DNA of 64,000 nucleotides from Selaginella moellendorffii (Eukaryota > Plantae > Lycopodiophyta). The stretch lies in contig NW_003314333.1 of NCBI RefSeq assembly GCF_000143415.4, positions 372,001 to 436,000 of the forward strand, given 5' to 3'. The notes below the pieces were generated by a model that ran no database searches, was not told the DNA's origin, and was given only the letters and a program-made list of their open reading frames with translations. Numbering within the stretch: the first letter of the stretch is position 1; each line of letters opens with the position of its first letter. Shown here piece after piece: positions 1 to 64,000 of this stretch. A program made the translations under genes and the position numbers.

Positions 1-2970
1 ATTCCAACTTAGCATATGTTGTTTAAAAAAGAATTTAAAATGACATTTCTCTTAAATAACTATCACCATCAAGGATTATACTCTATATAAAAGGATTTTC
101 TAATAAAGAGAGTTAGTAAATAAATGAGTTCACAAGAAGATTTTTATACACTAAAGAATATTCTATTAAGGTTTTAGTTGTAATATTTTTATTAAACAGG
201 TATTTAAAAAATAATATTTTAAGTATCTAATATTTTGGGAAATACTTGCTCTTTGATATAGGTTTTTCATTATCATCTAATTCAGAAAAGAAATTTTTAT
301 TTAATATTTTATAATCATTACTTATAATAATTATTTAATTTATATATTTACATTAATTTTTTGTTATTACTATAAAGTCCCTTTTATTGTAATCATAAAA
401 AATGCCCTATATTTTTTTCAGTGTAATTTATAGATAAAATTTATTTTAATTTCAAATACAATGTCAATATCTATTTTTTTCACCTCATATTCAGATGTTA
501 TGAGAATCCAAAGTTTAATATTTGGATTCATCCTATGCAAATGTTGAAATACTTTACAATTTTAACATTTAAAGAATTATGTGTAATTGCAACTTTGTTG
601 TAAAGCTTCCCATTTATAGTATCACTTCTATAAATGAGAATTAAATCTGTATTGTTGCTTGATGTTGATCCTTTACTTTTAACTATAATGCCCTTGAGTA
701 TGTTGTCTTTTCTTCCTTTGACCAAATATTTGTAATCTTTGTATTTTTGTTGGTTCTTGTCTACTAATATGAAATCAAGAAAGATTTAAAGAACTTGAAT
801 GCAATTATAAAGTTTGTATATTTGTAAAGAGCATGGTTGAAAGATAAATATAACATCTAATTGACAACAAAATCTCGGAGAAACTTAAGTCCTAAATTTT
901 AATACAAAGAAATTTTGGAAAAAAAGTTCTATATACTAATGTAAACACGTTTATGAATAAGCTTGTATAGAATTAAAGTGACCAAACACTGTAAATCTAT
1001 ATTTGGTTTGCTTGAGCAAACTTGTAGTGGTATTGAATATATTTAAATATGCTTGGATTCCATTCCAACAATCTAATAGTTTTTTATTTGTAATTTATAA
1101 ACTTTCCTAAACACTTTCTAGTATATTCTTTTTTGTTCTACTATTGATATGGAATATATTAATCTTGACTTATAAATTATAAATATGTTTATAACTATTG
1201 ATCAACTCAATGAATGATACTACTGCAAATTAATTTCCTTAGTCCAACTTTTATTGGTGCTGAAGTATATCACGAATAGTGTTGGCATCAGAAGGTTCTA
1301 GGAGTGGGCCTATCCTTGAGGAGTACCAAGTCGGGAAGACATGGCTCTCCATTACAATTCACGTGTGAACTTGTACGCAAGGCGGTGGATAGAAAAGGGC
1401 CAATAATGGAACGACTTTGGGATCTTGGGAACAGTGTAAGGCTTTCCTCATTGAATGAGGATGTGATCCAGATGAACGTTTAATGTAGCAAATGGGCTAA
1501 TATAGTTGTGGTAAACAATTATAGTTGGGATCACGGGAAAGATGTAAGACTCCAAAACAATAAAGGAGTCACATGATTACCCTCATATAGTTGAGGCTGG
1601 TGCTCATAACTTTGAGACCAGAATTGATGACCATAGGAAGTCAAATACAGAAGAGGACACAAGTCTTCGAAATGGTAGCCGGGGCTACCTCTAATAAATG
1701 CTGGAACAACCCAAGGAGTTGGGGGTGTACTCAGGTATTCTCATCACATGGACAAGTGGTCTTAAGGGGCAAAAGGGTGCCCCAAGAGAACAAATCAAGT
1801 GCCAGAGTAACACTTGCAAAGATGGTTCTTGTGAGTAGGACTTGAATACAAGAAGTTGTATTCCAGTGAGCTAGCACCTCAAAGGTAAGACCTCACGGGT
1901 TGTCGGATGATAAAGTCTAAAAAGCTGGATGACTCAAATAAGAGTCAAGGAATAATCCTAAGGGATTGGTTGAAGCATTTGGACTGAGGTGTATGGTGCC
2001 CCATGAGGTATAGGGAGGATCATAAGATCCAAATATGAGAACAATAGGTATCTCATTGATGACAGAATGTGCCATACTAAAGTTATGGGAAAGATGTTCC
2101 CAGAAGAAAGCAACTTTAGCCCAGAGTTGGGTGTAAACACTATGGTGTGGTGTTAACGAATAGTTAGCATGAGAAACAATTATATTGGTCTTGGCAAAGA
2201 CTTAGACATTAATAAGTAATGTTATAAGGGTAGGCTCGTGGGGCCGATGGTGTGGAGACACTAAATGTGCCAAGGTGTGATACCTTGAGGTTATGATGGT
2301 GGGTTCATAAGAACCCCTTGCCAAGGGAATCCCAACGGAAGCAGGAATGGCATGGCCTAAGTTGGAAAACATGTGGTTAGAGTGTGGTGACCTAGATAAT
2401 GATGGAGGTGTGGAAGCACCAAGCAATGAGTTGTAGGACTTGACAACTATGGGGCAATTAAGCAAAAGGTGCGAAGATAATTGGTTAAATGGGTAAAAGG
2501 TAGCTACCCAAGACTTCTTAATGGCATAAAAAAGTTAGATATATTCTTACAGGGGATAAATTGCTTATGTTGCGATATAGTGAATCAATGTCGTAAAAGG
2601 AAATGCTCATTGTCAAGGAAACCATCATTGGGACACCCAAACACTCTGGAACACCAGGAGGTGGTGTTTAGTGTCGTGAGGGCAATAAATAAGGCCCAAG
2701 GGACTAAGTCCTTAGCAAATGATGGATAGAAGGTGCTATCCAAATGTCCAAGGTTGCGAAGATGGGAGAAGACTATCTACCCAAATTGGACAAAGCCAAA
2801 AATGGAATTTTGGCAAGGCTAGTGAAGGCCCATGAGTAGCAACATTAATCCCGGTGTGTGGGATTATAAGGTGAGCATACCTGGATTAAGGAACCACTCC
2901 CTAGGTTATCAGGTAGGTTCATCCCTAAGAATACTTGCTAAAGCATGATAGAAAGTGCAAAGTTATCCTC

Positions 2971-3987
2971 TGTAAGGGACCGACTCCCCAAGATGTCATA
3001 GGCTAAAAGATCCCCAAAAGCATGACCAAAATGACAAAGAGTTCATCAGATGGGACCGAGTGGAAGATCGAGTCCAAGACTGACTCTGAGACCGAGTTCG
3101 AGATAGAGTCCGGGATCGAGCCGAGGCTGAATCGGAGACCGTGTATGAGACCAAGTTTGAGACCGAGTTCGAGACAAAGTCCAATATCCAAATTGGGTCC
3201 GAGACTGAGTACGAGGTCGAGTCCGAAGTCGAGTCCGAGATCAGGTCCGAGATCGAGTCCGAAATCGAGTCTGAGACCGAGTCCGAAGTCGGGTCCGAGA
3301 TCGAGTCCGAGATCGAATCTGAGACTAAGTCCAAATACTAATACGGGTCAAGGGGTGAAAGCCCAAAGCATGTGTCTCCCAGGGGGGGGGGGGGGGGGCT
3401 TCCGGGGGTTCCCAAAATATAGTAGGGATAGTGAGGTCCAGGAATTTTTCTTGAAGGAACTCTCCTGAGGTTTAAACTGGGGCCCAAGGGCCTTGGGTGG
3501 GAATGAACATGGGCTTGGGTGGGGCCCGAAGGGCCCCCCAGGGAAATGCTCAAAAACAGCTCCCTCTCCCCAAAGGGAAACCGACTGTGGTGCTCCCAGA
3601 TCATGTGGAGTGGTGCCCCACTTGAGTACCTTGTGGCTCATTGGTCCTTGCCCTTCCTAGGGGCTTGGGCCTTCCCTTTGGGATGGAAGTGGGGGGGGGG
3701 GGGGGGGGGGCTTAGTGTGCTTGGCTGCTTGTGCCTGCGGGGAGTGTAGCCGAACCTTAAGTCCAGTCTAACTCGGGGAGGGGGATTGGGAGAGATTTGG
3801 GAATCCGTAGATGGATGGCTAACACTCCATTGCTCGTGCAGTGAGTAGCTGAAACCAAGTAGGACCAAGTAGGAGCTGGTACAATAGGTGGGAACCTTGG
3901 CGAGGGAATTTAGCACAATCCAAGGCGGTGTTGGTCGGATAGACGAGGTAAGTTGGCAAATTGGAAAGGAAAAATTTATGGCTTACA
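2971..3987 (+). repeat. 5' LTR of family A copy 1
   Basis: TGTAAGG...GGCTTACA; homologous to 9328-10463 but lacks about 140 bp at the poly-G run near 3690-3710. Confidence 0.93.
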
Positions 3988-3990
3988 ATT

Positions 3991-4002
3991 TGGTATCAGA
4001 GC
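3991..4002 (+). promoter_or_regulatory. Primer-binding site (tRNA-iMet)
   Basis: TGGTATCAGAGC 3 nt after the LTR end. Confidence 0.95.
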
Positions 4003-4693
4003 CTTTTCCTCAGTTCTAGCAAAGGATAGAGGCGGATTGCTGGGAGATGGCAAAGGCAGGGCATAAGCAAACCCAGGCGGAGATGGAACCTCCGCCAGAG
4101 TTGGAGCTTCCGGTCGAACAAGAGGCTATGGATGAGGAATCCATGCATGAGGAGGACTCCAGTGAGGAAACTTCCAAACAGGAGTCCAGTGGCGAGGTTT
4201 AGTCGTCCAAGGCTCGATTGGATGTTCTAGAAGGACAATTGGTGCAGACCAATGCCCTGTTGGAGACTCTTGTACGCAAGCTAAAGCGTGACGAGAAGCA
4301 GAAGAAAAAGCAAAAGACTGCGGATGCTGGCAGTGCAGAAGGTGCGGAACCTTCGGCAGGGACTAAGGCAAAACCAGACAAGGTGGAATAGACCAAAGTG
4401 GAATCAGTCCCTTAGGCAGTTCCCAAGTACAAACCAAAGCCCCCACCGGTCTTCAAAGGAGTGAACAACTATAAGGTGGTGGAGGATTGGTTTTACGATA
4501 TGGAGGACTACTTTCGAGCATTGCGGTTACCGAGCTCAGAGAAGGTCCCATGTGCAAAACCATACTTGGCAGATAATGCCAAGTCTTGGTGGAGAACAAC
4601 AGAAGCCAACAAAGGACCGGTGGCCACTTGGGAAATGATGAAGGCGAGGATCCGCGCAACTTACGTTCCTCCAAATGCTACTCTGCATCTAAG

Positions 4694-4961
4694 GGACGAG
4701 CTGAGTAGGCTGAAGCAGACTGGAACCATTCAGCAGTATGTGAATGGGTTTATGGCAAAGAGGATACTTGTCACGGACATGGGGGATATGGATGCGTTCC
4801 ATGCCTTCATATCAGGTTTGCAAACCTGGACGAGCTGAGTAGGCTGAAGCAGACCGAAACCATTCAGCAGTATGTGAATGGGTTTATGGCAAAGAGGATA
4901 CTTGTCACGGACATGGGGGATATGGATGCGTTCCATGCCTTCATATCAGGTTTGCAAACCT
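4694..4961 (+). repeat. 134-bp tandem duplication inside gag (frameshifting)
   Basis: 4694-4827 is repeated at 4828-4961; the second family A element (~61880-62020) has a single copy. Confidence 0.9.
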
Positions 4962-7900
4962 GGGCTCGCGGTGAGGTGATGCGGTGGAACCCGACCAACT
5001 ACAAGGAAGCGTTGGATGAGGCCATCAAGGTGCATTTCAACGATAACCTGCGAAAGGGGAACACGACAGGGTCGGGATCCATGTTTAGCAAAGGGGCCAA
5101 ACCAAGGGGAATGTATAGCAGAGGGAAATTCAAGAAGAGTTTCTCTAAGAATGAGTCCTCGGGGTTCCGGAAAGGCAAATCTGGTGGCCAGCGAGTGAGT
5201 ACGTGGGGGAGTCAAGCAAAAAGAGACAAACCCATGGATAAAAAGGTCAAGTTGTATAGCAGCGTGGGAAACAACGTATGCTATAACTGCAGTGAAGCGG
5301 GACACTTTTCGAGGGAATGTCCTTACCCGAAGAAGGCTAGAGCCAATATGGCCATCAAGTCGGGTGAAGTCCAAACTGAGGTATGTGATCCAGTCCCTAA
5401 TTCAAAGTTACTCATTACACGAGCAACTTTGGTAGAGAGTCGTTCGCGACATCTATTAGCCCTCCGAGGGAAGCTCGGAGGTAGCTTTGTTAAGATCCTT
5501 ATTGACACGGGTGCTTCGGATAATTTTGTGGCTGCACAGCTAGACTAACGGTGCAGCGGCTAGGCGAACCAAGGACTATAGAGTTTGTTCAAGGTAGCCA
5601 AAGCACCGATGAGGTACTTCGACAAGCGAGAGTCGAAGTAAGGACATGGAAAGTAGACATGGATTTCACTGTGTTGGACATGGCGGGATTTGACGTGATC
5701 TTTGGAATGGATTGGTTCAATCGGTTCGTGGTAGCCCTGCATGAATAAGGTAGGAACCTTGTGGTACTAGCAAATGCCCAAAGAAGAAGATCTAGGGTGG
5801 AGGCCTAGGATCTAAAGGTAGGTCAAAGCAAGGCCAAAGAGTCCTGCTTAAACTTAGTGTCCACGAGAGGACAACTCACTAAAGGAACTAAGGCAGCCTT
5901 TTTGTGCTTACTCTCGGTGAAGAGTGACAAAAAGATAGGAACAGAAGAAGTACCTTTAGTGATCTAACGGGTGTTGGACCAATTCCAGGATACCATGCTG
6001 GAGGAGCTACTGGCGGGGTTGCCCCCCACACGACCGATAGAACATAAGATTGAGTTGGTCAAGGGTGCTGAGGCGGTGGTTCGTCCCCCCTATCGTTTGA
6101 ACGAAAAAGAACTCAAGGAGCTCAAGTGCCAACTAGAGGAGTTGGTGGACAAAGGGTATGTTAGGTTGCGCAAGTTGCCATATGGGGTGCCGGTGTTATT
6201 TGTGAAAAAGAAAGATGGATCTATGTGCATGTGCATAGATTACCGGTTGCTCAAAAAGTATACAAAGTACCCTTTGCCCAGGATTGAGGACCTGTTCGAT
6301 AGGTTGGGAAGGGCAAAATACTTCTCAAGGATTGACCTAAGGTCAGGATACTACCAAATCAGAGTAGCCAAGGAAGATGTCGAGAAGACAACCTGTCGAA
6401 CGAAGTATGGGAGCTTTGAGTTTCTGGTGATGCCCTTTGGGCTGTGCAATACACCGGCAACGTTTTCGGCATTGATAAATCATATCTTTGTACCCTATCT
6501 GGATCACTTTGTGGTCGTCTATATTGACAACATCCTAATCTATAGCGAGAAGCTAGAGGAGCATGCTGAACACTTGGCGAAGGTGTTTGAGAAACTAAGG
6601 GAACACAAATTATATGCTAAAGAGAGCAAATGTGACTTTGCTCAACAAGAGGTAAAGTTTCTCGGGCATGTGGTGGGCCAGGACGGGCTCAAGGTGGACC
6701 CGGAGAAGGTCCAAGCGATCCAGAAATGGGAACGACCATCGAATGTACATGAGTTGAGGGCGTTCTTGGGGCTATGCAACTACTACTGAAATCTTATCAA
6801 ACACTATTCGAGAGTAACCTTGCCCTTAACGGACCAAACAGGGAAAAGGGAAGATGGTATGGACAGCGGAATGTGAGGCGGCATTTGTCCACCTCAAAGG
6901 GAAGTTGAGGAAGGCTCCTATGTTGGCATTACCAGACTTTGGTAAGGACTTTGAGGTAGAAACGGATGCTTCAGACTTTGCGTTGGGCGCAGTTTTGAAG
7001 CAAGACAACCATCCAGTAGCGTTCTTCTCGAAGAAGTTGGACAAGGCTCAAAGGAATTGGCCTGCCCATGAGAAGGAATTGTTTGCGGTGGTTAAGGCGC
7101 TCAAGGAGTGGCGACACTACCTTGGGAGACACTTCAAGGTTTACAGGGACAATGTGGCAACGAAACACTTCTTGTCACAGCCCGACCTGAGAGGGAAACA
7201 GGGTTGGTGGGCCAATGCTTTGGCCGAGTTTGATTGTGAGATTCTGTACAAGCCTGGGAAGAGCAACATCGTGGCGGATGAGCTAAGTCGAAAAGCGAGC
7301 TTGAGGTTGGCGATATCCAGCGCAACAGCAACCTTCTGGGACGATGTGCGGACAGTATATGAGAACGATGGTCTAGCACAAGAAGTGATGCTAAGGAATC
7401 TAGAGGCACGGGAAGCTCACCAGAGATTTGAGCTGCCAACGAAAGAGAAAACGGGCTATGCGGAATGCAATGGACTCATCTATTACAAGCAAACGAGGGT
7501 GTATGTTCCAGAAGGAGAACTAAGGAAGGTAACCTTAGAAGAGTGTCATGACAGACCCCTTGCGGGACACGGCGGAGTGCCCAAGATGATGGGCTTACTC
7601 AAGAGGAAGTACCATTGGCCCGATATGGCTAAGGACGTCCAAGACTATGTAAAGACATGTCTAACATGTCAGCAGGTCAAAGCCGTGACTAAGGCTAATG
7701 GGGGCTTGTTGCAAAGCATCCCAATTCTAGATCGTCCGTGGAAATGTCTTACGATGGACTTCATCACGGGACTCCCACCAAGCGAGGGGTTTGATGCGAT
7801 ATTTGTGGTGGTGGACCGATTTTCGAAAATGGCACATTTCATACCCACCACAATGGAAGTGGATGTAGAAGGTGTGGCAAAGCTGTTCTTCGAACAAGTG

Positions 7901-8033
7901 GTTCGAGTGCGGGGAAGGCCGGAAGTGATCATCTCAGATCGAGATAAGATCTTCACTAGTAGGTTCTGAAGGACTCTCTTGGAACTGTATCGCACATGGT
8001 TGAAATTCAGCACAGCCTATCACCCACAGACAG

Positions 8034-8080
8034 GTATGGGGTATTAAGTCAAGTTTGGTGGCACTAACACTTCTTGACAG
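8034..8080 (+). other. 47-nt spliceosomal-type intron in the integrase core
   Basis: GTATGG...CACTAAC...TTCTTGACAG; removal restores STAYHPQT-DGQTERVN exactly. Confidence 0.88.
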
Positions 8081-8490
8081 ACGGACAAACGGAAAGGGTG
8101 AATAGGCAGCTGGAGGATTATTTGTGATGCTATGTCTCGGGAGACCAAACCGATTGGGTAAGTCATTTGGGATTTGCGAAAATGTGTTATAACAACTCAC
8201 CACATTCGAGTATCGGGGTGAGTCCATGGGAAGTCATCAATGGGCGAGCTATTGAAGGTCCTGTGGAACTCGGCGTGGCTGAGTATCATGGAGAGCTACC
8301 TGCAGTGGAGGCATTCACGGCGGAAAGGCTCAACATTTGGAATCTATTCCTTGGAACGGGCTCAACAAAGGCAAACCAAGTACGCGAACCAAAAGCGCCA
8401 GGATGTAGAGTTCCAAGCTGGGGAGAAGGTGTGGCTAAACACCAAGAACCTTAGGCTACCAAGTGGGATCAACCGGAAGTTGACCCAAAG

Positions 8491-8542
8491 GTAAAAATGC
8501 ATGTATTCCTGTAAATAAATTGATCTTGAGTTCCTTAAGCAG
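8491..8542 (+). other. 52-nt spliceosomal-type intron in the integrase GPY/F region
   Basis: AG|GTAAAA...TTCCTTAAGCAG|G; removal restores RKLTQR-FAGPYEI. Confidence 0.85.
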
Positions 8543-9315
8543 GTTCGCGGGGCCTTACGAGATTGAGGCACGAATCGGTAAAGTGGCTTACCGACTCCGA
8601 CTTCCTCGAGAGATGGGGAAGATGCACCCAGTGTTCCACGTGAACTTACTCAAGCCGTACTTTGAGGATCCGCTTCGCAAGGACCAAGTAAGACCTTTAC
8701 CTAAGGTTATCCAAGGGGAAGAGGAATACGAAGTCGAGGCCATCCTCAATGAGCGCAAGAACAAGCGATAAGGACCCGAGGTGAGAGAGTTCCATGTGAA
8801 GTGGAAAGGATTTCCACACTACGAAGCAACATGGGAACTGGAGGAGAACCTAGCGAACGTGCGAGATCTAGTGGAGGAATTTCTGCAAGGCAGAACTCTA
8901 TGTACTTATGCAAAGTTCAATTAAAAATATCAATTTGCAAAGTTGAGCAAGTGGCATATGTTGGGACCCAAAGGCACGCCGAAGGTAAGTTAATTAGCAT
9001 GGGTTAGCTAGGTTGACCAGGCGTAGGGCACTACGCCTGACTCCCCGCGGGGATGTCGAATCCGTAGACATATTCTAGGGAGGTTGGGTTCGAGTCCCAA
9101 TCCCCTAGTAAAGCAAGGCTGGGTTCAAGTCCTGACCCCATACTAGGGCGTGGTGAGGTGAGGAGTATAGGGACACCTATACTCCGTTGTCATTGGCTCT
9201 TGGCCAGGGAGGCTAACTTAGGCACACCGCTAAGTGGGGGGATGCCCCCGGAGACATGGTCAACAAGTCGTAGGATAAAAAGAGACGTTCGATGTGGGCA
9301 TCGAACTTCTTCTAT

Positions 9316-9327
9316 GGGTGGTAGAGC
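9316..9327 (+). promoter_or_regulatory. Polypurine tract of family A
   Basis: GGGTGGTAGAGC directly before the 3' LTR; nearly the same as the family B PPT region. Confidence 0.75.
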
Positions 9328-10463
9328 TATAAGGAACCAACTCCCCGAGATGTCGTAGGCTAAAGGATCCCCAAAAGCATGACCAAAATGACAAAGAGTT
9401 TATCGGATGGGACCGAGTCGAAGATCGAGTCCAAGACTGACTCTGAGACCGAGTTCGAGATAGAGTCCGGGATCGAGTCCGAGGCCGAATCGGAGACCGA
9501 GTTCAAGACAGAGTCTGAGATCCAAATTGGGTCCGAGACCGAGTCCAAGGTCAAGTCCGAAGTCGAGTCTGAGATCGGGTCCGAGATCGAGTCTCAAATC
9601 GAGTCCGAGACTAAGTCCAAAGTCGGGTCCGAGATCGAGTCCGAGATCGAATCTGAGACTAAGTCCAAATACTAATACGGGTCAAGGGGTGAAAGCCCAA
9701 AGCATGTGTCTCCCAGGGGGGGCGGGGGCTGCAGGGGGTTCCAAAAGTATAGTAGGGATAGTGAGGTCCAGGAACCAGTCTTGAAGGAACTCTTCAGTGG
9801 TGCTTCCAAATTGACTTGAGGTTGAGACTGGGGCCGAGGGGCCTTGGGTGGGAGTGAGCATGGGCTTGGGTGGTGCCGGAGGGGCCACCCAGGGAAGTGC
9901 TCAAGAGCAACTCCCACTCCCGAAAGGGAAACCGACTGCGGTGCTCCCGGCTCATGTCGAGTGGTGCCCCACTTGAGTACCTTGTGGCTCATTGGTCCTT
10001 GCCCTTCCTAGGGGCTTGGGGCTTCCCTTCGGGATGGAAGTCGGGGGGTAGAGGTACCCATACCGAGCCGTTAGGCCACGGTGTTTCGCTCTGACATCCC
10101 GAAGCAAGTGTTGCACCCAAGGCTTGGGATTTAGAGGGTCCTATGATCAAGTCTTCATGTACCAAGGGGTGTTAAGAACCTGGAGGCTTAGTGTGCTTGG
10201 CTGCTTGTGCCTGCGGGGAGTGTAGCCGAACCTTAAGTCTAGTCTAACCCGGGGAGGGGGATTGGGAGAGATTTGGGAATCCGTAGATGGATGGCTAACA
10301 CTTTGTTGCTCATGTAGTGAGTAGCTGAAACCAAGTAGGACCAAGTAGGAGCTGGTACAATAGGTGGGAACCTTGGCGAGGGAATTTAGCACAAGCCAAG
10401 GCGGTGTTGGTCGGATAGGCGAGGTAAGCTGGCAAATTGGAAAGGAAAAATTTGTGGCTTACA
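9328..10463 (+). repeat. 3' LTR of family A copy 1
   Basis: TATAAGG (mutated TG) ... GGCTTACA; homologous to 2971-3987 and 62724-63886. Confidence 0.92.
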
Positions 10464-12759
10464 TTCTTCTAATCTGGAGGAGAATGACTAAAGGAAAGGT
10501 GTGAAGCCAAAAGCAAGTAGTAAGGGGATAGAACCGAACCATAGGAATCGAAGGGCATGACCAAGGCTGGTTATGCCAGCTGGGAGTGGAGAATTAAGTG
10601 GGGGCTTGAGGGTGTTGTTGCTAGCAACCGTGATGCCATGGAGAGTCTAAAATATGGAATTGTCCATATTAGACTATATGGCAACTAGAAAACTTGTGAA
10701 AAGGGAGGCTTTAGTAAGTTAAGGGACAGAGTTCCTTCAAGGTTCCCAAATACGATTCTAGGTAGTTTAGTACCTAGAAAGGCCAAGTGTAAATGGTTCA
10801 TGGAATGCGTGAAACTAGAGTGGCGCAGTAGAAGCGTGGTCTTGAAGCTTGCTATGAGGCAAGGCTATCAAGGTTAGGGAAGTAGTTCCCGAGTGTTCAA
10901 AGAGAGGGCTTTGAACGAAAGTCAATGGTCAAGGACTTTCATGCTTATGCAAGAACCATGATACAGTGGTCGGAGGACTTGCCAAGCGAGATTGGCAAGT
11001 CGGGGGAACAAATACCCTAGTTGAAGGTGATAACTTCAAAAGGGGGTGGGCCATGGGGCCAAGTATGGAGAAGTCCATGCATGATCACAGACGTGTCAAG
11101 TGAGAGGACTTGGTAATGTGGAGGAACTAAGTTCTTAAGCTATAATCTATAGTGCACTTTAAGTATAAGTTGGTGCACTGGCGTGGGGAGTCACGCCAGG
11201 CATCTAGGGTGATGCTGTCCATAGATGCATATACGGAGGTTGGGTTCGAGTCCCAACCCTCTAGTGCTTGGGTTCAAGTCCCAAATCACTAGGGCGTGGT
11301 GATGGTTTGGAATATGAGGACACTCATATTTCAGTAGTCATGGACTCTCAGTGAGGAGATTGATTTGGGCACACTACCAAGCGAGGGATGCCTCGGAGTC
11401 ATGATGCATGGTTAGATTGCTTAGAGTGAAAGCTTGGCATATCTAACTTGAACACTTTAGTGCAAAGGGCACCAAGGACGTGGTGAATGAGATGGGGACA
11501 CCCAGTCTCAGTTGCTATGGATCCTTGGCCGGAAGGGCTGGCTTGGGCGCACCGCCAAGTGTGGGGGATGCCCCCAGGGTCATAGTCAACAATTTAAAAG
11601 GGTTTGGAAGACTTAGTTCCTATTGGTAGACCTGTTAAGGGGTCAAGATGAGATCACCAAGTGATCTTGTGGCTAAACAAAGACAAGGTCTTTGTTTGGG
11701 TTAAGGAATATGATTCCCAGTTCAAAGTGTTGATTTGAACTATTGATAATGGTGTGGCTTGGTCGAGATGACCAAGTGGGAAGGACAACTAAAGGGAAAT
11801 CAATTGTGCCAATACGATGGTATAGTAAGTTTAAGAAAGTAGTTTCGGGGAGACCCATGGGAGGGTCGCAAAGTTTGGCCATGGACGAAGCCCGTAGCAG
11901 AAATTGCTAAAGAGACCTACTAGGGGTGAGCACCCGCTGGACTTAGCAAAGTAGAGCCTTTGCCATGGAACCAAAAGGATACCTTGAGAATGGAGGTAAT
12001 GATCCTATGTTGCTCAGTGCAACAATCAATGGATAAAAGCAAAAGACTAGTGGCCAAGTGTGGGCCATAGAGTTCATTGGAAGGAATCCAAATGGCAAAG
12101 TTAGGCATGGAACACTAATGTGTTGGATGCTAACGGATTGTGAGAAAGGAAGTGTGCTTCCAAGGATGGATTCCCAAATGCTCCAAGTTGGCAAAGGTGA
12201 AAGCTCCAAGGGAGGGAGTGGCGAAGTAGCCAAAGGATAGGGCCGTGGATATCTCTAGCACAACTTACGATGGCTGGAACTTGGTGCCAAAAGTGGCATA
12301 AAATAGAAAGGAGGACGATGGCACCCTCAAGTGGGGAGCTTTCTAGGATGGGAAGTGAAGTGGCACAATATATGCAGTGAAAGGTGTCAAAGACACTAAA
12401 GAAATTGACTTCGAGAAGTCAAAATTAAAAGTTCCAAGGTGAATTGGTTATGTCAATAGAAGTTGGGACTACTCGAGAATGAGTAGTGGGATTGAGCTAG
12501 AGAACGGGTCTCTAATGGGTTTAGCGAGAATAAACCCAATAAAAGGGAGAGAACCACCTGAGGTGGTCAAATGAGTTTCTATGTTGGAGACACTATGCTC
12601 CTTAGAGGTTGGACAAGGCATGGCGAGCCTTTGATGTCAAACCATTGACAAATATTGGCTAAGTGCCAAGGATGGAGAAGGTAATACATGCTAGTGTTAC
12701 TTTATAAAACGGTTTATCATTTGATAAGGACATCGAACTTCGTCTATGGGTGGTGGAGT

Positions 12760-14197
12760 TGTGAGACACAAATCCCTAAGCCCCAAAGTGGAGCCGAAAG
12801 GGTGCCATGTGGTAGTGGCCGAAGCAAAAGCCAAACGAGCGTAACACGTTTGGACTAAAAGGCTCCGACTTGAAAGGTCAAGAGCGAGAGTGGAACTCCC
12901 AACGGAGTGCTCAAGGAACGAGCATGAAGCGAGCAATAAGCGAGGCTCCAAAAAGGGACCCAAAAGGACCAACACATGAAACGTGGAAGTGTCCGAGATG
13001 GAGTTTGAGAAGGACCCGAGATAGAGTCCGAGGTCGAGACCGAGACCGGGACCGAGACCGAGACTGGGACTGAGACCGAGCCCGAGCCCGAGCCCGAGCT
13101 CGAGCCCGAGTCTAATTCCGAGTCCGAGTTCGAGTCCAAGTCTGAGTCTGAGTCCGAGTCTGAGTCTGAGTCCGAGTCCGAGTCTGAGTCCGAGTTCAAG
13201 TCTAAGAGGGTGAAAGCCCAAAGCGTTTGTCTCCCAGACCCTGGGGGGTTTGGTGAGGTCCAAAAGTATAGTAAAGGGGAGGACTGCAGTGGAGCCAGTT
13301 TTGCTAGGAAAGGCCAGTTTGGCCCAGGAAGGCCAGTGTTGGGTGATGAACTAACCACTGGGAAGTCCAAGACTAGAGTGAATATGGACCGACAAGCAGG
13401 GTAGCTTGGTGAAGTGTTCAAGAGCCGGCTCTAGTTCCCCCGGGAGATCGACTAGCCGATGCTCCCAATCCAAGTGTGGGTGGCACTACCTACTTGGATA
13501 CCTGGTGTGGCTCAATGGAACCTCGCTCTAAGCCCATGGCTAGAGCACCTAAAGGCAGAAGGTGGGGAGAGTACCCACGGGGCTTGCGTAGGGCCACAGT
13601 GTTCCAAAATATTGTCCTAAAGTCCCATACGGGGGAAAGGAGGAGGAACAATCCTCTAGTGTAGTGACTACGGATATGGTCACATGGTGAGGAAGTCTCA
13701 GAGGACAATGGGACTTAGTGGCCGGGCCTACGGGCCTTGATCTAGTGGCAGTGTTGGTGAAAATGGCCATGGACGGAAAAGGGACTTGGCAGAAACTGAC
13801 AAAGGGATGTTGGGGAAGGTTATTCCCCATATCTGTAGGCATCCTAAGGATGCTAAGGAGTGGATCTGGGATGACCACTCGTGGACGGACGGCCCAGTTT
13901 TGGAGAGACGGGATTGTGATGCAAGTGGTATTAGACCACCAATGCGGCAAAGGTGAATGGGCATGGCCTTAGCGTAATGGGCCGATATGTCAGTGGTACC
14001 TTTGGGTGTCGGTCTTGGGAGTGGACACGTGGAGCACTTGGACCAAGTGCAAGGGATGAGTGGCATGAATGCCATTCTCAGGACTAGCAAGTCCCAAGTC
14101 CTGAATTGGACTTAAGGAGGTTGTGAATGAGACTCTTCCAAGTGGTCAGAGGTGTAGTTAAGTGACTAAAGTAGAATGAAAAATTTAATCGCTTACA
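12760..14197 (+). repeat. 3' LTR of family B copy 1
   Basis: TGTGAGACAC...TCGCTTACA termini match the LTRs at 47688-49409 and 53386-55095 (reverse complement). Contains a GAGTCC/GAGACC/GAGCCC hexamer array. Confidence 0.9.
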
Positions 14198-14229
14198 AGT
14201 ATGCTTTAAAGAGGATGTTGATCTTCCTT

Positions 14230-16448: not shown

Positions 16449-19400
16449 CTACTTTGTTTTGACTATGTACTCCTTTGCGAGCGCAGTGATGTACTTCGTG
16501 AAGAGAATCTCATACTTAAGTGTTTGAGCCAAGTTTATTTTACCTTGCTTCTGCTTGGAGACGGTATCAATAAATTTAACTGCCTTACCTTTTCTCGTTG
16601 GCCTCCTATGCATCTTTGTAGGAACAGTTCTGGTTTTATCACTCATGTCTTCAACTCTCCTTTCAAGATTGAAACCAAATTTCTTAAGGTTTTCAATCTC
16701 ATCTGAGGTGAACGCAACCCCATTAGCAACTAGCCATTCTTTAGGTACTGCATCAGGTTTAGTCACTATAGTGTCTTCAAGCCGCTTTGTATGGTTGACA
16801 TCAAAGTTGCAGCAATATAACCAACACCATCTTGAAAATCCTGCTTGCTTTCGTTCCCCATGGAAACATGGGGCTGGAACAGAAGCAGACTTGTCACCAT
16901 GGATCCAAGCCCAACACTTGCCCCTTGGAAGCATCCCCACACACCTTACATTTGATTTTGCTGGCACTCGATGGATTGCCCATTGCTTTGGCTCCACGCT
17001 ATAATAAGCAATTTCAACCTGCTGTGATACACTTTCTTCATTAGCCACTTGAGGTGGCTCGGTTCTGGGGCGATGTCTTGGAGCAGAATGATACTCAACA
17101 TCAGGCCTGTGAGAGCTTTTTGCTCCAAGATCCATGCTAACATCTTCACCAGCAAAGGAAATCAACACTTTGAGCGGACAGTCTTCATATCACTAATAGA
17201 AGCCCGAGGAGTGTAGTCCATAGATGTGCCATGGACCACTTCCTCCACTGCAGTTGCCATTGTTCGTGCTGGTGGAGTCACTTTCTTCTTCATCCGATCA
17301 TGTAACATCTCAACCGAAGGTCCTATTCCCATGTATCTTCCTTCCTCAAATGCCAAGGCTTTTGAAGACTGCTCTACAGTGCGTATCAAATCTGATAGAC
17401 ATGCTTCATATAGACTCATATTCCCTTTCCCTGCCTTAGAGGAATGCCAGCTCCAATGTTTACTCTCTGAGAGATTCACAGTTGGGGTGTATGCAAGATC
17501 CTCAAGTGGTTGATCCTTATAAAAAGATGATATTAAAAAGCAATAAAAAGAGAGGGAAAGAAGAAAAACCAACCTGAAAAGAGTGATGTCCCTATTGGAA
17601 CATTTTAACTTCCCACCACCCCAACCACGACTCAAGTTGTGGTAAACAACTTACATTAGTATGGCCATCTTCACGCCACCACATTCAGTTCTCGTTTGCT
17701 TTTGCCTCATGCTCTTCTTTAGAAGGTGCAGCCTGCCATTGTTTGCACAACTCCTTAAATGTTAATTGGAAATCTGGCTTGATAAGGTGGCAGTGTTGGT
17801 TTAGGCTCTGAGCCCAATGGAACTCACAAGTTCTCTCACGACCTTCTAGGGGTTGACTATTCCCAAAGACTTCCCAGACACCATTCCAATTAGCCCCAGC
17901 CCCATCTGCCATGAAACCGTGAAAGTTGGCAGGCTTACCAGTCCACTTCAATACAATGTCGGAAAGGGACTTCCAAAATATTTCCTGAGCCATCTGGTCT
18001 TGTACTTTAAACTCTGCCGTTGCAATTGTCAAGTTACAATGTAGCTTGTGAAAAGCGCAATGTTTAAAACCATTTTAAGATAATGAAAAAAAAAACTACC
18101 TCAGATCATACACATGAGCTCCCATGGTTGTCTAACCCACCACCCGCTCTATATGGTCAAAATGTACCCATGCATTAACAAGGTCACTCGACCCAGACAT
18201 ATCCATTTGGGAAATAAGATCCACACCAGAGGCAGAGCCTATGGTAGACATTTTGAAAACAAAGGGGCACTCTTACTCACTAACGACTTGATCTGGAAAA
18301 AAACTCCCATGGATAAACTCATAGGGATAAGTCTGTTTTAGTTCAAGGATTGAGTTGATATTTTATTGGAGTTTCCCCTCTCGAGATTCACACATCCAAG
18401 ACTTTATCCTAAATAAAACAAAATGTAAAAGAGATATTATTGAAAAGTATGTAATAATATTTTCATACCTCCTAAGGCTAGTTGTAGGTTGCACATGTCG
18501 TAGTAACTCCCGCAAGCTAGCCTCATCCAGTTGAGTATTCTTGTAGTCCAGATCAAGTAAAGTGTTTGCAATAAAATCCTTGAGCACTATTTTTTGAACA
18601 TGCTTTGGAGTTGTAAATGAGTTTCTCACAGTCTCTATCTACACTGCATCTTTGAAATGGTTGACTGAACTCTTTTGTATCCCTTCCTGCATTGGATGTG
18701 TGTGCGTGCTAATATGTACTGCAGCTCTACTAGCCTCTCCATCCCGTGGAAGAAAATAGTACATCTTGGCCCCGCAGATGGCATGACACAATGGAGCATT
18801 CTTGCAAAACCAACACTTGAATCCAACACCAATGGTGTCACAGAGGGGAGGATTGGTTGCAGATCCTTCAAAAAATATGGAGTTTTTACCACACTCTTGA
18901 TTGCATGCTTTATTCACACAATCCAAATACCCACCACAATGAACCATGGACATTGTGTCTTTGAAATGCTAGAAATGTGTGGTCTTGATCTTGCACCAGT
19001 TGTGGACGTCCTGCTTCGTCTCCATCCCTTTTCGTTTTGAGTTGACAAAAGGTGGTAGTTCAAAGAAGATATTGCCATTGTATATAGATGGGAGCTCGCT
19101 AACAGGCCTATGTAGAAAAGAACGAACATTGATAGAGAGGCGAGAAAACTAGAAAGTGTTGCAAACAGCTTGGAATATTAGTGAAGTTGGAGTTTGGAAA
19201 TTCTTGGCTTGCACTGGACTAACATCTCCGCTAGAACTAGAAGAGGAAGAAATGATGACGACTGACTCTTGCTTCACATTCACTTTATCAGGATCGCAGC
19301 CTTGCACTTTGATTGGAGATCCAAAAACTTGAATCTCTTTCGACTTGGAATGTTGCAAATCCCAATGTTGTCCACCTTCACCTACACCCGAAAGAAGAAA

Positions 19401-19562
19401 CTCCGATCGTTCAACTACACCAATGTTATTGCGAATCACAACTTCCAATGAAATAGAACCAAGAGAAAGATCGAAACGTCGGCAAGCAAAACTTTCTGAA
19501 ATAAGACTTTGGGAGAAAGAAAGCAGTGGGTGATCTTGGTAATGCAAAAGGAAGCCCTCCAT
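16449..19562 (-). pseudogene. Multi-exon Mutator-type transposase with WRKY/GCM1-like zinc finger
   Basis: CGGYLDCVNKAC...CWFC...C...HTHP; WVHFDH..VVG*TTMGAHVYD; FHGFMADGAGANW...RTCEFHWAQSL (MULE D...CxxH); short AT-rich introns, stops and frameshifts. Confidence 0.75.
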
Positions 19563-20409
19563 TTTGTTGCCTTTAGGTTTTGGAACTCTGAACTTTTATA
19601 ACGAAATGTCACCTCACATGTGCTATGCCATTATGTGAAAAGAAAGGGCGATTTTATTCTAGGATCTAACATCTAATAATGTTGTTATAATAAATTCTAT
19701 ATGAAGTATAAAGGACTATGTTGTACAATATTAAAAGTCTATATACATTGAATTCAAAAACATGCTCAAATTTATTATATGCACTAACTTTTGGTAGAAC
19801 GGAAAGAAATATCACCTCAAGTATGTGCTATAATATGAAAGATAGGAATGATTTTATTCTAGGATCTATCATCAACCAACTGTTGCCAAACAAATTAAAT
19901 ATTGTACATATTTTCAGTACTTCATTAAAGCTAGAAATCATCACATTCTTCTGAACTCATTTAAATATATTCCATTTTTGTACTACCATCTATCACCTAT
20001 AGTAAATTATCTATATACATTGCTTTGGAAATAACACCTTACAATTTAATAATCTTATATTTTCTGACAATTTTGTACTGTGATCAATTCAACACATGTG
20101 TCTGTGACATTATTTCACATTATGACATAGTCATATTAGAGCACACCTCCATTATTAAATTACAACTCAAAAGGACTTTGTCACGTGATTAAATCTAGGA
20201 CGGAATAGAAATTGTATAGTGCTAGCAAATATTTGCAGAATGCAATGAAGATTTACTGGATCCACGATGAACGGCTGTGATGAAAGTTAGGTTAGGGTTA
20301 GGTCCGCTGCCGGCATTAGGGTTTTACAGAAAGAGATTGGGAGTGACTGCGAGATCCATTGGCATCGAATAGAATGCCACCAAGAGTAAGTTTTTTCTCC
20401 TCCACTCCC

Positions 20410-27700: not shown

Positions 27701-27885
27701 ATCTCTCCTCGTTCAATAGCGACCACATTCCCATCGAAGACAGTCTCTACTGATACAGCAGCATTGCCTTCCCCAAGCCTTTGATAGTGTATAACAAAGT
27801 TCCAATCCATAGACACAAGGGTCCCTTTTGCAACTCTCTTCCCACCATTCAAAATGTAAACCTTTTCCCCAACCCTGAAGGCCAT
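24744..27885 (-). CDS. Sola-like DDE transposase (995-aa ORF, probably extended through a premature stop and a 52-nt intron at 24779-24830)
   Basis: IIHDKMDQKKT, KTDNAGSENKN, FLMVGHTHEDVDAMFS; CCKRRC and KCDEC Cys clusters; duplicated N-terminal VAKG/VAEG...LG...V.V module. Confidence 0.75.
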
Positions 27886-29163: not shown

Positions 29164-29189
29164 TTTAGGGTTTAGGGTTTAGGGTTTAG
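29164..29189 (+). repeat. Interstitial plant telomeric repeat / telo-box (TTTAGGG)x3.7
   Basis: TTTAGGGTTTAGGGTTTAGGGTTTAG. Confidence 0.85.
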
Positions 29190-53370: not shown

Positions 53371-53382
53371 GCTCCGATACCA
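53371..53382 (-). promoter_or_regulatory. Primer-binding site (tRNA-iMet-like)
   Basis: TGGTATCGGAGC on the minus strand, 3 nt from the LTR. Confidence 0.9.
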
Positions 53383-53385
53383 AGT

Positions 53386-59393: not shown

Positions 59394-61408
59394 ATCGGTC
59401 CTAGTTCCTCAATAGCAGTTGATGGTAAATATAGTATAGTCGATTCAATGTGCTAATAAGTTTGTTTTTAGTAGCACGGGAGGATACCATCTCAATCGAA
59501 GGGAGATATTTGGACATGCATATGGATCCGCAAGTGGACTCTACTTGCCTGCAAGAGTCATCAGAGCTGGTGGAGGCTACTATCCATATCAATGCCAAGC
59601 AAGCTGACCACGCTCCACTTGATGCTGCCCATACCACTGAGTCAATCTTGTCCACGTATCCAACTGACGGTGACCAGGCGCCATTGGACCCGCATGAGGC
59701 CGCCCCAACCGCCGAGCCGGTCGTATCCTCATTTCCAACGGACTCAACGTGTGCCCAATCATCTGACTACGCGCCGTTGGAACCTCCCTACACCGCCCCT
59801 GCTACCTGTTTGGTCATGTCCACTTTGCAAACGGAGGCACCAGCTGAAATGGTGTGTGATCACACGCCATCAGAACCACCCCATGCCACTATTGAGCTAG
59901 TTGTACCAGAGTCTACAGCTGAAATGGCATGTGCCCACACACCATTGGATGCAATTGACCCCACATTGCAGAGGAGAGTATTTCCGCCCTTCACGTTTCC
60001 TCAACCAAAACCCTCTCAACGACCATCGGGAGCACCATTCGCTAATATTGTAGATGGTAAAATTGACTTGTACCATTTTTTATGCTGACGCATTTCATTT
60101 CAGAGTCACGGCGAAGGTACTATATCGTTTTTGATCTGAACGGTGTCCTTTTCTCCCATGAGCGTGGCTCGTCCTCGAATGTCACTGCACCCTCCAAAGC
60201 TTGCAATCGCAAATTGGTCAAAAGAGACAAATTCACATTAATCACACGGGAGAAACTGCGGGATCTAATAATGACCATGCGACACTTAAAACAGAGGGCC
60301 GGGTTCAATTTGCAATTGGGAGTTTGGACATCCATGATGCGCCACAATGCATTAACGTTGCTATAGATGATGCACGATCAGACGCGAGTAATATTACCAT
60401 TTGACTTTCTCCTAACGCAGGAGGATTGCTTGACTATGGTCCATGTGAGGGGTAGCAAGCCCATCTTCGTCAAGCCAGAGGCTGTAGTGATGAACCGGAC
60501 TGCTAGGTCAAGTGAAATCCTCATCATCGATGACTCGCCGATTAAAACTGCAGCGAACACGCACACATATGCAGTGCACCCCATCTCTTGCAGTATGGAA
60601 ACTAGGGAGAAGAAACCGTATGTTCTGGGGGACCTTGCAAAACGGCTTGGAGCGATGGTGATAGAGAACCGGCCAGTCCAGAAGGTGGCTGTAGAAATCA
60701 ACCAAATGGCAGATGGAACGGTATATCAGAAGCCATTTGATCAGATAGACACCAGTCACCATTTATGGCATGTATATTGTCTAGCTAAGCACTATCCGCA
60801 TCTCCATAATCTGGTCAACCGGATGGGTTCTTCGACCACTGAACATGAGCGTGGACGTATTAGAGAAGAGATGGCATTACTATTGGGTTTAAATTCTGAT
60901 AGTGTGGAGAGTGATGAAATTCCAAGATTATTGTATAGGTGTTGGAGGCAAAAAATAACAATCTAAGATGGCATGTATTTATTTCAAAATGTAACTTATT
61001 ATGGCATGGGGTTCCATGCCATTGTATTAATATTAAAAGACAATTCTTTGAGAGGATTTGCATTATACTAGAAGTGTTACAGCATGTTATTGGAAGTCTA
61101 CGAAGTTGTATTATTAATAAGGGGAAAGTAAAGATTAAATGGGGACTTGGGCTCCACCTAGACTCGGAGCAACTAAGCCAATATTAAAAGGATGGAAAGA
61201 AATTGGACGACAATGACAAGGAGAAGAGAGAGGTGAAGCAGTGGCAGGGGGAGGAGAAGTGATTGAGTAGACATTTCCTTGTTTAAAATAAAATGGCATG
61301 TGCCTCAATGCAGTTGAATTTTGTTATATTTATATACTATATAAAGGTTTGGAAACCTTATTTTACAAGTGGGATAATGACAATTCCCACTTTAAGGAAA
61401 TAGAGCTT
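59394..61408 (+). repeat. 2015-bp duplicate of 34492-36506 (Pro-rich exon and FCP1/NIF-like exon)
   Basis: Near-identical with scattered transitions; abrupt junctions with no TIR or TSD. Confidence 0.95.
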
Positions 61409-62664
61409 TCTACCAAAGTTGCTCGTGTAATGAGTAACTTTGAGTTAGGGATTGGATCACATACCTCAGTTTGGACTTTACCCGACTTGATGGCCATATT
61501 GGCTTTGGCCTTCTTTGGGTAGGGACATTCCCTCGAAAAGTGTCCCGCTTCACCGCAGTTGTAGCATACGTTATTTCCCATGCTGCTATACAACTTGACC
61601 TTTTTATCCATGGGTTTGTCTCTTTTTGCTTGATTCCCCCACCTACTCACTCGCTAGCCACCGGATTTGCCTTTTCGGAACCCCAAGGACTCATTCTTAG
61701 AGAAACTCTTCTTGAATTTCCCTCTGCTAAACGTTCCCCTTAGTTTGGCCCCTTTGCTAAAAGTGAATCCCAACCCCGTCGTGTTCCCTTTTCACAGGTT
61801 ATCGTTGAAATGCACCTTGATGGCCGCATCCAACGCTTCCTTGTAGTTAGTCGGGTTCCACCGCATCACTTCACTGCGAGCCTAGGTTTGCAAACCTGAT
61901 ATGAAGGCATGGAACGCATCCATATCCCCCATGTCCGTGACAAGTATCCTCTTTGCCATAAACCCATTCACATACTCCTGAATGGTTCCGGTCTACTTCA
62001 GCCTACTTAGCTCGTCCCTTAGATTCAGAGTAGCATTCAGAGGAACGTAAGTTGCACGGATCCTCGCCTTCATCATTTCCCAAGTGGCCACCGGTCCTTC
62101 GTTGGCCTCTGTCATTCTCCACCAAGACTTGGCATTATCTGCCAAGTATGGTTTTGCACATGGGACCTTCTCCGAGCTCGGTAATCGCAATGCTCGGAAG
62201 TAGTCCTCCATATCATAAAACCAATCTTCCACCACCTTATAGTCGTTCACTCCCTTGAAGACCAGTGGGGGCTTTGGTTTGTACTTGGGAACTGCCTGAG
62301 GGACTGATTCCACTTCGGTCTGTTCGACCTTGTCTAGTTTTGCCTCAGTCCCTGCCGAAGGGTCCGCACCTTCTGCGCTGCCAGCATCCATTGTCTTTGG
62401 CTTTTTCTTCCGCTTCTCATCACGCTTTAGCTTGTGTACTAGAGTCTCCAGCAGGGCATTGGTCTGTGCCAATTGTCCTTCTAGAACGTCCAATCGAGCC
62501 TTGGACGACCGAACCTCACCACCAGACTCCTGTTTGGAAGTTGCCTCACTGGAGTCCTCCTCATGCAAGGATTCCTCATCCATAGCCTCCTGTTCGACCG
62601 AAGGCTCCAGCTCTGGAGGAGGTTCCGTCTCTGCCTGGGTTCGCTTACGTCCTACCCTTGCCAT
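61406..62664 (-). pseudogene. gag (with CCHC knuckle), premature stops, truncated
   Basis: MARVGRKRTQAETEPPP...VEDWFYDMEDYF...CYNCGEAGHFSREC. Confidence 0.9.
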
Positions 62665-63886
62665 CTCCCAGCAATCCGCCTCTATCCTTTGCTAGAACTG
62701 AGGAAGAGGCTCCGATACCAAATTGTAAGCCACAAATTTTTCCTTTCCAATTTGCTAGCTTACCTCGTCTATCCGACCAACTCTGCCTTGGCTTGTGCTA
62801 AGTTCCCTCGCCAAGGTTCCCGCTTATGGTACTAGCTCCTACTTGGTCCTACTTGGTTTCAACTACTCACTGCACGAGCAACGGAGGGTTAGCCATCCAT
62901 CTACGGATTCCCAAATCTCTCCCAATCCCCCTCCCCGGGTTAGACTGGACTTAAGGTTTTGCTACACTCCCCGCAGGCACAAGCAGCCAAGCACACCAAG
63001 CCTCCAAATTCCTAACACCCCTTGGTACCACGAGACTTGATCATGGGACCCTCTAAATCCCAAGTCTTGGGTGCAGCACTTGCTTCGGGATGTCAGGGCA
63101 AAACACGCGTGGCCTAACGCCCTGGTATGGGTACTTTTACCCCCCCATTTCCTTCCGGAAGGGAAGGCCCAAGCCCCTAGGAAGGGGGGGGCCCAATGAC
63201 CCCCAAGGTTTTCAAGGGGGGCCCCCCTCCCCATGACCCGGGAGCCCCCCATTGGTTTTCCTTTTGGGGAGGGGGAGCTGTTTTTGAGCCTTTCCCGGGG
63301 GGGCCCCTCGGGCCCCCTTAAAGCCCATGTTCATTTCCCCCCAAGGCCCTTGGGCCCCGTTTTAAACCTAAAGTCATTTTGGAACCCCCCCTGGAGAGTT
63401 CCTTAAAGACGGGTTCCGGGCCCCCACTATCCCTAATATATTTTGGGAACCCCCTGCAGCCCCCCCCCCCCCCTGGGAGACGCATGCTTTGGGCTTTCAC
63501 CCCTTGACCCGTATTAGTATTTGGACTTAGTCTCTGGCTCGATCTCGGACCTGATTTCGGATCTGACTTCGGATTCGGTCTCGGACTCGATCTCGGACTC
63601 GATCTCAGACCCGATCTCGGACCCGACCTCGGACTCGACTTCGGACTCGGTCTCGGACCCGATTTCGGATCTCGGACTCCGTCTCGAACTTGGTCTCGAA
63701 CTCGGACTCGAACTCGGTCCCCGAGTCGGTCTCAGACTCAATTCTGGACTCTATCTCGAACTCGGTCCTAGAGTCGGTCTTGGACTCGATCTTCGACTTG
63801 GTCCCATCCGATGAACTCTTTGTCATTTTGGTCATGCTTTTGGGGTTCCTTTAGCCTACGACACCTCGACGAGTTGGTTCCTTACA
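61406..63886 (-). mobile_element. Family A copy 2: 5' LTR (62724-63886), PBS (62709-62720) and gag, truncated before the protease
   Basis: Homologous to 2971-5437; TGGTATCGGAGC PBS. Confidence 0.92.
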
Positions 63887-64000
63887 GCTGTATGTTTTGG
63901 TGTAGTCTAGCCCATGAACTTCAGAGAAACCATGAGCTACAAAATGTGCTTTATAACATTCCACTGTGCCATTAGCTCTGTACTTGCATTTAAATTGCCA

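Follow-up and report, generated by a model that had tools for sequence, protein, structure and literature searches.

Two short GT-AG introns in the integrase of a Ty3/gypsy retrotransposon of Selaginella moellendorffii

Two short inserts that interrupt the integrase of a Ty3/gypsy LTR retrotransposon of Selaginella moellendorffii are GT-AG introns, probably of the U2-type spliceosomal kind, removed exactly in RNA or probable-RNA data. Our best explanation, to which we assign a probability of roughly 0.7, is that the element is a decayed copy of a many-copy family, likely SM1-Galahad, for which unspliced RNA is likely the replicating form and spliced RNA likely the sole source of working integrase. 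All coordinates refer to the window, i.e. the whole 64,000-nt stretch of contig NW_003314333.1 (positions 372,001 to 436,000, forward strand) that was analysed.

Results

Anatomy of the element

The element is a Ty3/gypsy chromovirus, with Gag-PR-RT-RH-IN and a C-terminal chromodomain between two LTRs; the copy occupies 2971-10463 (7493 bp). Pfam domains for gag, zinc knuckle, RT, RNase H, integrase, SH3-like and chromo follow each other in Ty3/gypsy order, the protease was recognised from its DTG motif alone, and Ty3 Gag-Pol (7q5b) was matched with E=4e-17. The copy is decayed and dead: its 4047-8047 frame is disrupted by stops, frameshifts and a 134-nt tandem duplication (4694-4961). The two LTRs are 92.5% identical, counting ungapped columns only, and the G tracts of the LTR are 17 and 20 long. 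We take the primer binding site (PBS) to be of the tRNA-Met type, which is consistent with the 13-bp tRNA-Met PBS published for SM1-Galahad. The features are as follows.

2966-2970 and 10464-10468, flanking the element: 5-bp target duplication, decayed, 3 of 5 bases identical
2971..3987, + strand: 5' LTR, 1017 bp, TG...CA, with poly-G tracts at 3382 and 3691
3948..3999, + strand: candidate leader intron, 52 nt, 33% GC, covering the LTR end and 9 of the 13 PBS bases (read from sequence only)
3991..4003, + strand: PBS, 13 nt, presumed tRNA-Met type
4047..8047, + strand: Gag-PR-RT-RH-partial IN frame of unspliced RNA, closing at a TAA within intron 1
5381..5435 (55 nt) or to 5423 (43 nt), + strand: candidate intron at the Gag/protease border, a weak hint
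8034..8080, + strand: intron 1, 47 nt, in the integrase core, between the second Asp and the Glu of D-D-35-E
8081..8490, + strand: middle exon, with the catalytic Glu and the C-terminal portion of the integrase core
8491..8542, + strand: intron 2, 52 nt, immediately ahead of the GPY motif
8543..8924, + strand: last exon, with the GPY/SH3-like domain, chromodomain and stop codon (Pfam PF24626, PF22938, PF00385)
8897..8945, + strand: AT-rich tract (25% GC) at the pol stop, candidate internal polyadenylation signal
8985..8990, + strand: donor-like GTAAGT, no junction seen
9312..9327, + strand: polypurine-tract (PPT) region, ahead of the 3' LTR
9328..10463, + strand: 3' LTR, 1136 bp
61405..63887, - strand: second family copy, truncated (5' LTR, PBS, gag), ending short of the integrase

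The copy sits within a copy of a long, non-coding-looking LTR family, which is found at 47689-55095 (-) and at 10465-14200 and 1260-2970 (+) and has LTRs of ~1710 bp that are 96.3% identical. It has a TCCGAG repeat tract, the LTR end, the PBS type and the PPT region in common with the Galahad element and is possibly its non-autonomous partner. Both Galahad LTRs contain a hexamer-repeat tract (3050-3340, 9408-9665) with an open, ESE-rich frame of ~100 codons, and longer versions of the tract occur in the related non-coding family (48479-49186, 54177-54860). The untranslated stretch ahead of the PPT (8990-9320) holds many short hairpins, with similar repeats in the non-coding family (11232-11293), and is a candidate packaging signal.

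The family is likely SM1-Galahad

The element is likely SM1-Galahad, a Galadriel-clade family of S. moellendorffii described by Novikov et al. 2012 (PMC3350952); the match is by lengths and features, not by sequence. According to the text of that paper, SM1-Galahad is ~7.5 kb long, has LTRs of 1076 and 1146 bp with poly-G tracts and a 13-bp tRNA-Met PBS, and is present in hundreds of copies of 95% similarity, none of them intact. Its ORF1 of 3885 bp (1295 aa) lacks the chromodomain, which (as group I) is found in the last of two downstream ORFs of 316 and 309 bp (PMC3350952). In our copy ORF1, from the ATG at 4047 to the intron-1 stop, comes to 1295 codons plus stop once the duplication and three indels observed in run X15 are allowed for, an arithmetic that assumes no indels in short uncovered stretches. 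ORF3, from the ATG at 8613 to 8921, measures 309 nt and thus equals the published value; ORF2 is 321 nt with its stop and 318 without, compared with a published 316, which is not a multiple of three. The likeness therefore extends over total length (~7.5 kb vs 7493 bp), LTRs of more than 1 kb, poly-G tracts, the 13-bp PBS, exact ORF1 and ORF3 lengths and a short ORF2 between them, whereas the LTR lengths (1076/1146 published vs 1017/1136 here), the ORF2 length (316 vs 321) and the absence of reported introns set the two apart. Neither 'intron' nor 'splic' occurs in the text of PMC3350952, which treats the coding region as three ORFs; the family, which the original prediction had not identified with any published element, is known, and its introns appear to be unreported.

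Three protein searches (best 120 matches each) returned no family member, with best identities of ~46-49% for RH-IN and 62% for RT; the best ordinary full-length matches, again among the best 120, were flowering-plant polyproteins 45-48% identical. None of the 360 best-matching proteins ends like the intron-1 read-through. A degenerate search pattern for introns placed at HPQT-D gave 0 matches in viral contigs and 3 in metagenomes; none of the three encodes an integrase, and we attribute them to chance. No intact young copy was seen here, and none is given in the text of the 2012 paper (PMC3350952).

An intronless sister lineage, for which the original prediction had proposed a search, is already published: SM2-Galahad of the same species has a single uninterrupted 1577-aa ORF, hundreds of copies and a known intact young copy, as described in the text of PMC3350952. 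It is the closest sister, likewise encoding Gag-Pol with a chromodomain at a similar length (1577 aa vs 1557 codons here after splicing); unlike our element, it has one unbroken ORF and no introns at these sites. The presence of an intronless sister in the same species makes this a polarised case of two intron gains.

The two inserts have the form of host introns

Insert 1 (GTATGG...CACTAAC...GACAG, 43% GC) interrupts the Asp codon of HPQT-D-GQTE and insert 2 (GTAAAA...GCAG, 31% GC) the Arg codon of KLTQ-R-FAGPY, the flanking coding DNA being 49-51% GC. Positions, ends and branch site agree with the original prediction, which had placed GT-AG inserts of 47 nt (with CACTAAC) and 52 nt at 8034-8080 and 8491-8542, and both conserved motifs are split as it described. 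The branch site is clear in intron 1, and intron 2 has loose candidates only. A random 47- or 52-nt piece of the element's coding DNA would have GT..AG ends with a chance of 0.3-0.4%. The lengths fit host intron size, with a median of 59 bp for S. moellendorffii (PMC3729371 table 3). They had also been likened to those of other introns in the window, and similar-sized examples do occur there, all of them candidates read from sequence:

35155-35201: intron candidate, 47 nt, with a duplicate at 60057-60103
18409-18468, - strand: intron candidate, 60 nt, read by eye

Among 120 long homologues, junction 1 is ungapped in 113 of the 114 that cover it, with Asp in 110, and junction 2 in 92 of 99, with Arg or Lys in 88. 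The first motif is present in 82 of 120 near-length homologues, every one of which (82/82) keeps the 9-residue spacing, and neither site is interrupted in any of three distant chromovirus DNA loci. The ungapped homologues and uninterrupted loci together argue that the inserts were gained in this lineage. Removing them had been expected to restore the frame exactly; it does so locally, across both junctions of the homologue alignments, whereas the copy as a whole still carries several stops and, between the introns near 8345, a frameshift.

No match to either intron that would point to its source exceeds 11 nt elsewhere in the window. Intron 1 contains a 6-bp inverted repeat (8048-8078) that brackets the branch site, ends 2 bases ahead of the acceptor and could weaken splicing. 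A direct repeat of 5 nt accompanies junction 1, such as arises when an intron is gained with duplication of its target. Folding z-scores, to be read as leads only, were -2.4 for the intron 1 region (4 of 200 shuffles; the 6-bp stem adjoins the acceptor), -0.5 for the intron 2 region and -3.8 for the 3' region (8860-9330).

A third strong donor had been noted after the chromodomain, near 8984. Donor-like GTAAGT is indeed present, with its GT at 8985; however, no junction uses it and a probable-RNA contig reads through, and we reject the idea that it is used in splicing. The window holds 6 AGGTAAGY motifs vs 3.7 expected, which is no enrichment.

Family DNA keeps both inserts

The inserts are family-wide in DNA. 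In X5, a small DNA contig set (3.3 Mb) that likely consists mainly of repeats, records 17 and 19 (depth 47.5 and 47.7) cross introns 1 and 2 with no gaps. In the DNA run X1, 21,228 contigs of which align to the element, records 1, 2 and 4, which are 81-86% identical to the window, also cross the inserts. Summed X1 depth, which is not a copy number, was no lower inside the introns (93,557 and 81,687 at positions 8058 and 8517) than in the exons (69,948 and 56,873 at positions 8173 and 8437). There is no intron-skipping joint among the 15 of 35 DNA joints listed (all X1, depth 11.8-21.5). Inserts confined to this one decayed copy, which would have spoken against the original prediction, are thus not what the family DNA contains.

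Some RNA lacks the inserts

Six RNA or probable-RNA runs were considered: X22, on record as RNA-seq and examined for ~12% of the run; X15, X17 and X19, which we guessed to be RNA; and X23 and X24, with 2 partial reads and 0 reads on the element, respectively. The RNA and DNA runs may come from different individuals. Intron 1 is skipped exactly in three of the six (X15, X22, X19) and intron 2 in two of the six (X15, X19). In X15 (probable RNA, study P2) a single 1083-nt contig, record 6, skips both the 47 nt and the 52 nt, with GT..AG ends; X19 (probable RNA, P5) has one contig per intron skip. In X22 (P6) one of nine aligned reads skips intron 1, with 41 nt on its short side, and reads at the intron 2 junction number 0. 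The junctions 8033/8081 and 8490/8543, which the original prediction had named as those to look for, are therefore found in RNA or probable-RNA data of three studies, the majority of this evidence coming from runs of guessed RNA status (X15, X19), and the contrary outcome, no spliced reads from any family member, did not occur.

Intron 1 is kept in X1, X5 and X17 and intron 2 in X1 and X5. In X17 (probable RNA, P3) contigs end and start inside intron 2, and the 8985 donor is read through; since this run may hold DNA, it does not make unspliced RNA firm. In two studies the spliced contigs stop at 8881 and 8876, just ahead of the AT-rich tract and with no loose end listed, and the DNA continues; these ends are a weak hint of internal polyadenylation. 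Another X15 contig ends exactly at 5380, ahead of an AG/GTA[AT]G site, of which 5000-9320 has only three; this may be a coincidence at low coverage.

What splicing changes in the protein

The chemistry of D-D-35-E integrases of the retroviral type is well established. Unspliced RNA reads HPQTGMGY and reaches a stop at 8045-8047, and the Glu, separated from the second Asp by 35 residues, is encoded in the middle exon. Since the unspliced frame stops ahead of this catalytic Glu, its product is predicted to be unable to integrate; it also lacks the GPY domain and the chromodomain. The spliced frame is a whole number of codons, 1557 by length arithmetic.

X15 record 6 differs from the window at 61 positions, 40 of which are listed, among them 18 of the 24 that fall in the middle exon and none of the 12 that fall in the last. 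In the middle exon 13 of the 18 listed differences are synonymous in the spliced frame, compared with 34% expected for random transitions (P=0.001), as are 7 of the 9 changes not listed as majority in X1; in the first exon it is 14 of the 22 listed. Eight differences listed for the last exon in a second alignment set fall, counted by hand, at codon positions 1-2, a pattern that reflects the decay of this copy and gives no sign of selection. The synonymous excess argues that selection continued to act on sequence past the intron-1 stop at a time when the introns were in place, and the middle exon looks selected.

Alternative explanations

This apparent selection bears directly on one alternative, namely that the inserts killed the integrase of a master copy, that the family then spread with the integrase of SM2-Galahad, and that the spliceosome removes the AT-rich inserts incidentally. 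A donor of integrase is at hand in intact, intronless SM2-Galahad with its hundreds of copies in the same species, no intact SM1-Galahad being reported in the text of PMC3350952, and the non-coding LTR family of the window indicates that mobilisation in trans probably occurs here. Incidental removal, however, leaves the mostly synonymous differences past the intron-1 stop (13/18, and 7/9 for changes not X1-majority) unexplained, as it does two independent inserts that both have canonical ends and host-typical size, and a spliced frame that is a whole number of codons near the sister's length. We consider this alternative improbable.

We likewise give little credence to the possibility that the joined forms are not splicing products and that one or a few intronless DNA copies, ancestral or retrotranscribed from spliced RNA, are the expressed and possibly master elements. 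The RNA status of X15 and X19 is guessed, in two of three segments the expressed sequence departs from that of the window at 6-8% of sites, the 5-nt repeat on both sides of junction 1 could guide a DNA deletion, and, with 15 of 35 DNA joints listed, transcripts of a rare intronless copy would look spliced. Against this, an intronless master would leave intronless progeny, whereas the highest-depth DNA contigs keep both inserts, no skip is found among the listed joints (15 of 35; depth at least 11.8), and the multi-copy reconstruction in the text of PMC3350952 shows intron-broken ORFs. That intron-bearing copies multiplied by DNA-level duplication and not via RNA, with no special mechanism needed, is scarcely credible: the window is rich in DNA-transposon-like genes with duplicated blocks, but the element lies within another one, bounded by an LTR pair and a decayed 5-bp target duplication of its own, the flanks of the second copy are different, and hundreds of copies at ~95% similarity are reported in the text of PMC3350952.

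Other features of the window

Several further features of the window were recorded. An open 1002-codon frame at 24898-27906 (-) with a DUF7869 domain (E=4.5e-41) likely encodes a DNA transposase, and genes at 30666-36064 together with a duplicate block near 59400-61000 may be cargo of this DUF7869 transposase element. An open 694-codon frame at 44158-46242 (-) has weak NACHT/STAND NTPase matches below curated cut-offs. A decayed transposase-like gene at 16449-19595 (-) contains several short AT-rich intron candidates, e.g. 18409-18468. Three TTTAGGG units of the plant-type telomere repeat lie at 29164-29184, within a transposon block.

Discussion

In our preferred reading, in which the genome is unspliced and the complete integrase comes from spliced RNA, unspliced RNA would serve as the template for reverse transcription, because copying of spliced RNA would yield intronless DNA, yet the family multiplied with both introns. 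Spliced RNA would supply full Gag-Pol, including integrase, to the particle and, less securely, might be kept from replication by a missing cis element. The original prediction had gone further, proposing that unspliced RNA is packaged and that integrase is made from spliced RNA as a splice-controlled switch. What stands is that the inserts are family-wide, exactly removed and needed for a complete integrase; packaging of unspliced RNA is inferred from intron retention in DNA, and a regulated switch, as opposed to simply partial splicing, is unsupported.

How would spliced RNA escape copying? Our first choice, at somewhat less than even odds, is an internal poly(A) site just past the pol stop, upstream of the PPT and 3' LTR, at which the spliced RNA would end; polyadenylation there would give a message without either. 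The unused 8985 donor might then protect full-length RNA, a speculation by analogy with U1 in EVD. Our second choice, at distinctly longer odds, is that splicing of the leader intron removes the PBS: such splicing would entail loss of the LTR end and most of the PBS. The 3948-3999 segment has a consensus donor, kept in all three LTR copies, and a terminal AG that lies inside the primer site and is an obligatory part of this PBS; the acceptor is altered in the second copy. Otherwise, packaging might simply prefer intron-containing RNA.

A 43- or 55-nt intron at 5381 would end the frame ahead of the protease and so yield a Gag-only message. Tentatively, and with considerable doubt, one may picture SM1-Galahad as resembling a host gene with several introns, up to four short ones sorting its RNA into three jobs: RNA with all introns as genome, RNA without the two integrase introns as the sole message for complete Gag-Pol, and RNA without the Gag/protease intron as the message for Gag alone, the leader intron or internal poly(A) making spliced messages uncopyable so that introns are never lost. 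Were this four-intron reading true, splicing would set integration separately from reverse transcription.

An element that gained two introns in its integrase core and reached hundreds of copies suggests that genome and enzyme message can be kept separate in an element of this kind. The introns also explain a published oddity, three broken ORFs and no intact copy, and carry a warning: where a species has very short introns, families that bear them can be mislabelled as dead on the ground of 'no intact ORF'. SM1-Galahad and SM2-Galahad form a natural pair for asking what marks RNA for packaging. In the literature, outside Repbase, two large REXdb files, figure images and subscription papers, we found no report of introns in SM1-Galahad or inside the integrase of any LTR retrotransposon.

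Plant LTR retrotransposons are generally without introns, Ogre and EVADE being the exceptions named in the relevant part of a 2025 review (PMC12786077), and introns placed in such elements are normally lost in one cycle, on which reporter assays depend (PMC12786077). By analogy, the nearest mechanism is that of Ogre of pea and Medicago (Tat lineage), whose one intron between Gag-PR and RT is spliced from some transcripts, as described in passages of PMC6317226, PMC4408406 and PMC12786077. Ogre, too, is a Ty3/gypsy element in which an intron is removed from part of the transcripts so that the whole polyprotein can be translated. It is, however, a non-chromovirus whose intron gates all of RT-RH-IN, whereas here two very short introns, inside the catalytic core of the integrase, would gate only integration and targeting. 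We do not place our element in the Ogre/Tat lineage: probable-RNA contigs have no joint between 5543 and 8028, and a chromodomain is present.

Spliced RNA is found alongside unspliced RNA in EVD and further Ty1/copia elements of Arabidopsis, where splicing is coupled to premature termination and a nearby poly(A) site is suppressed by U1 binding (Oberlin et al. 2017, PMC5580714). The internal poly(A) idea, and any part that the 8985 donor may play, are modelled on EVD; splicing of EVD, however, yields Gag-only mRNA while its unspliced RNA encodes all of Pol, a logic that would be reversed here for integrase. Foamy virus pol mRNA and Penelope-like elements appear to be looser parallels than Ogre. 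Foamy viruses also make enzymes from spliced RNA and keep an unspliced genome, but there splicing removes gag for a separate Pol and the intron is not within a catalytic domain (PMC7828637); Penelope-like elements are likewise retroelements that keep introns after retrotransposition, but they are not LTR elements, have no DDE integrase and replicate differently (PMC8557442).
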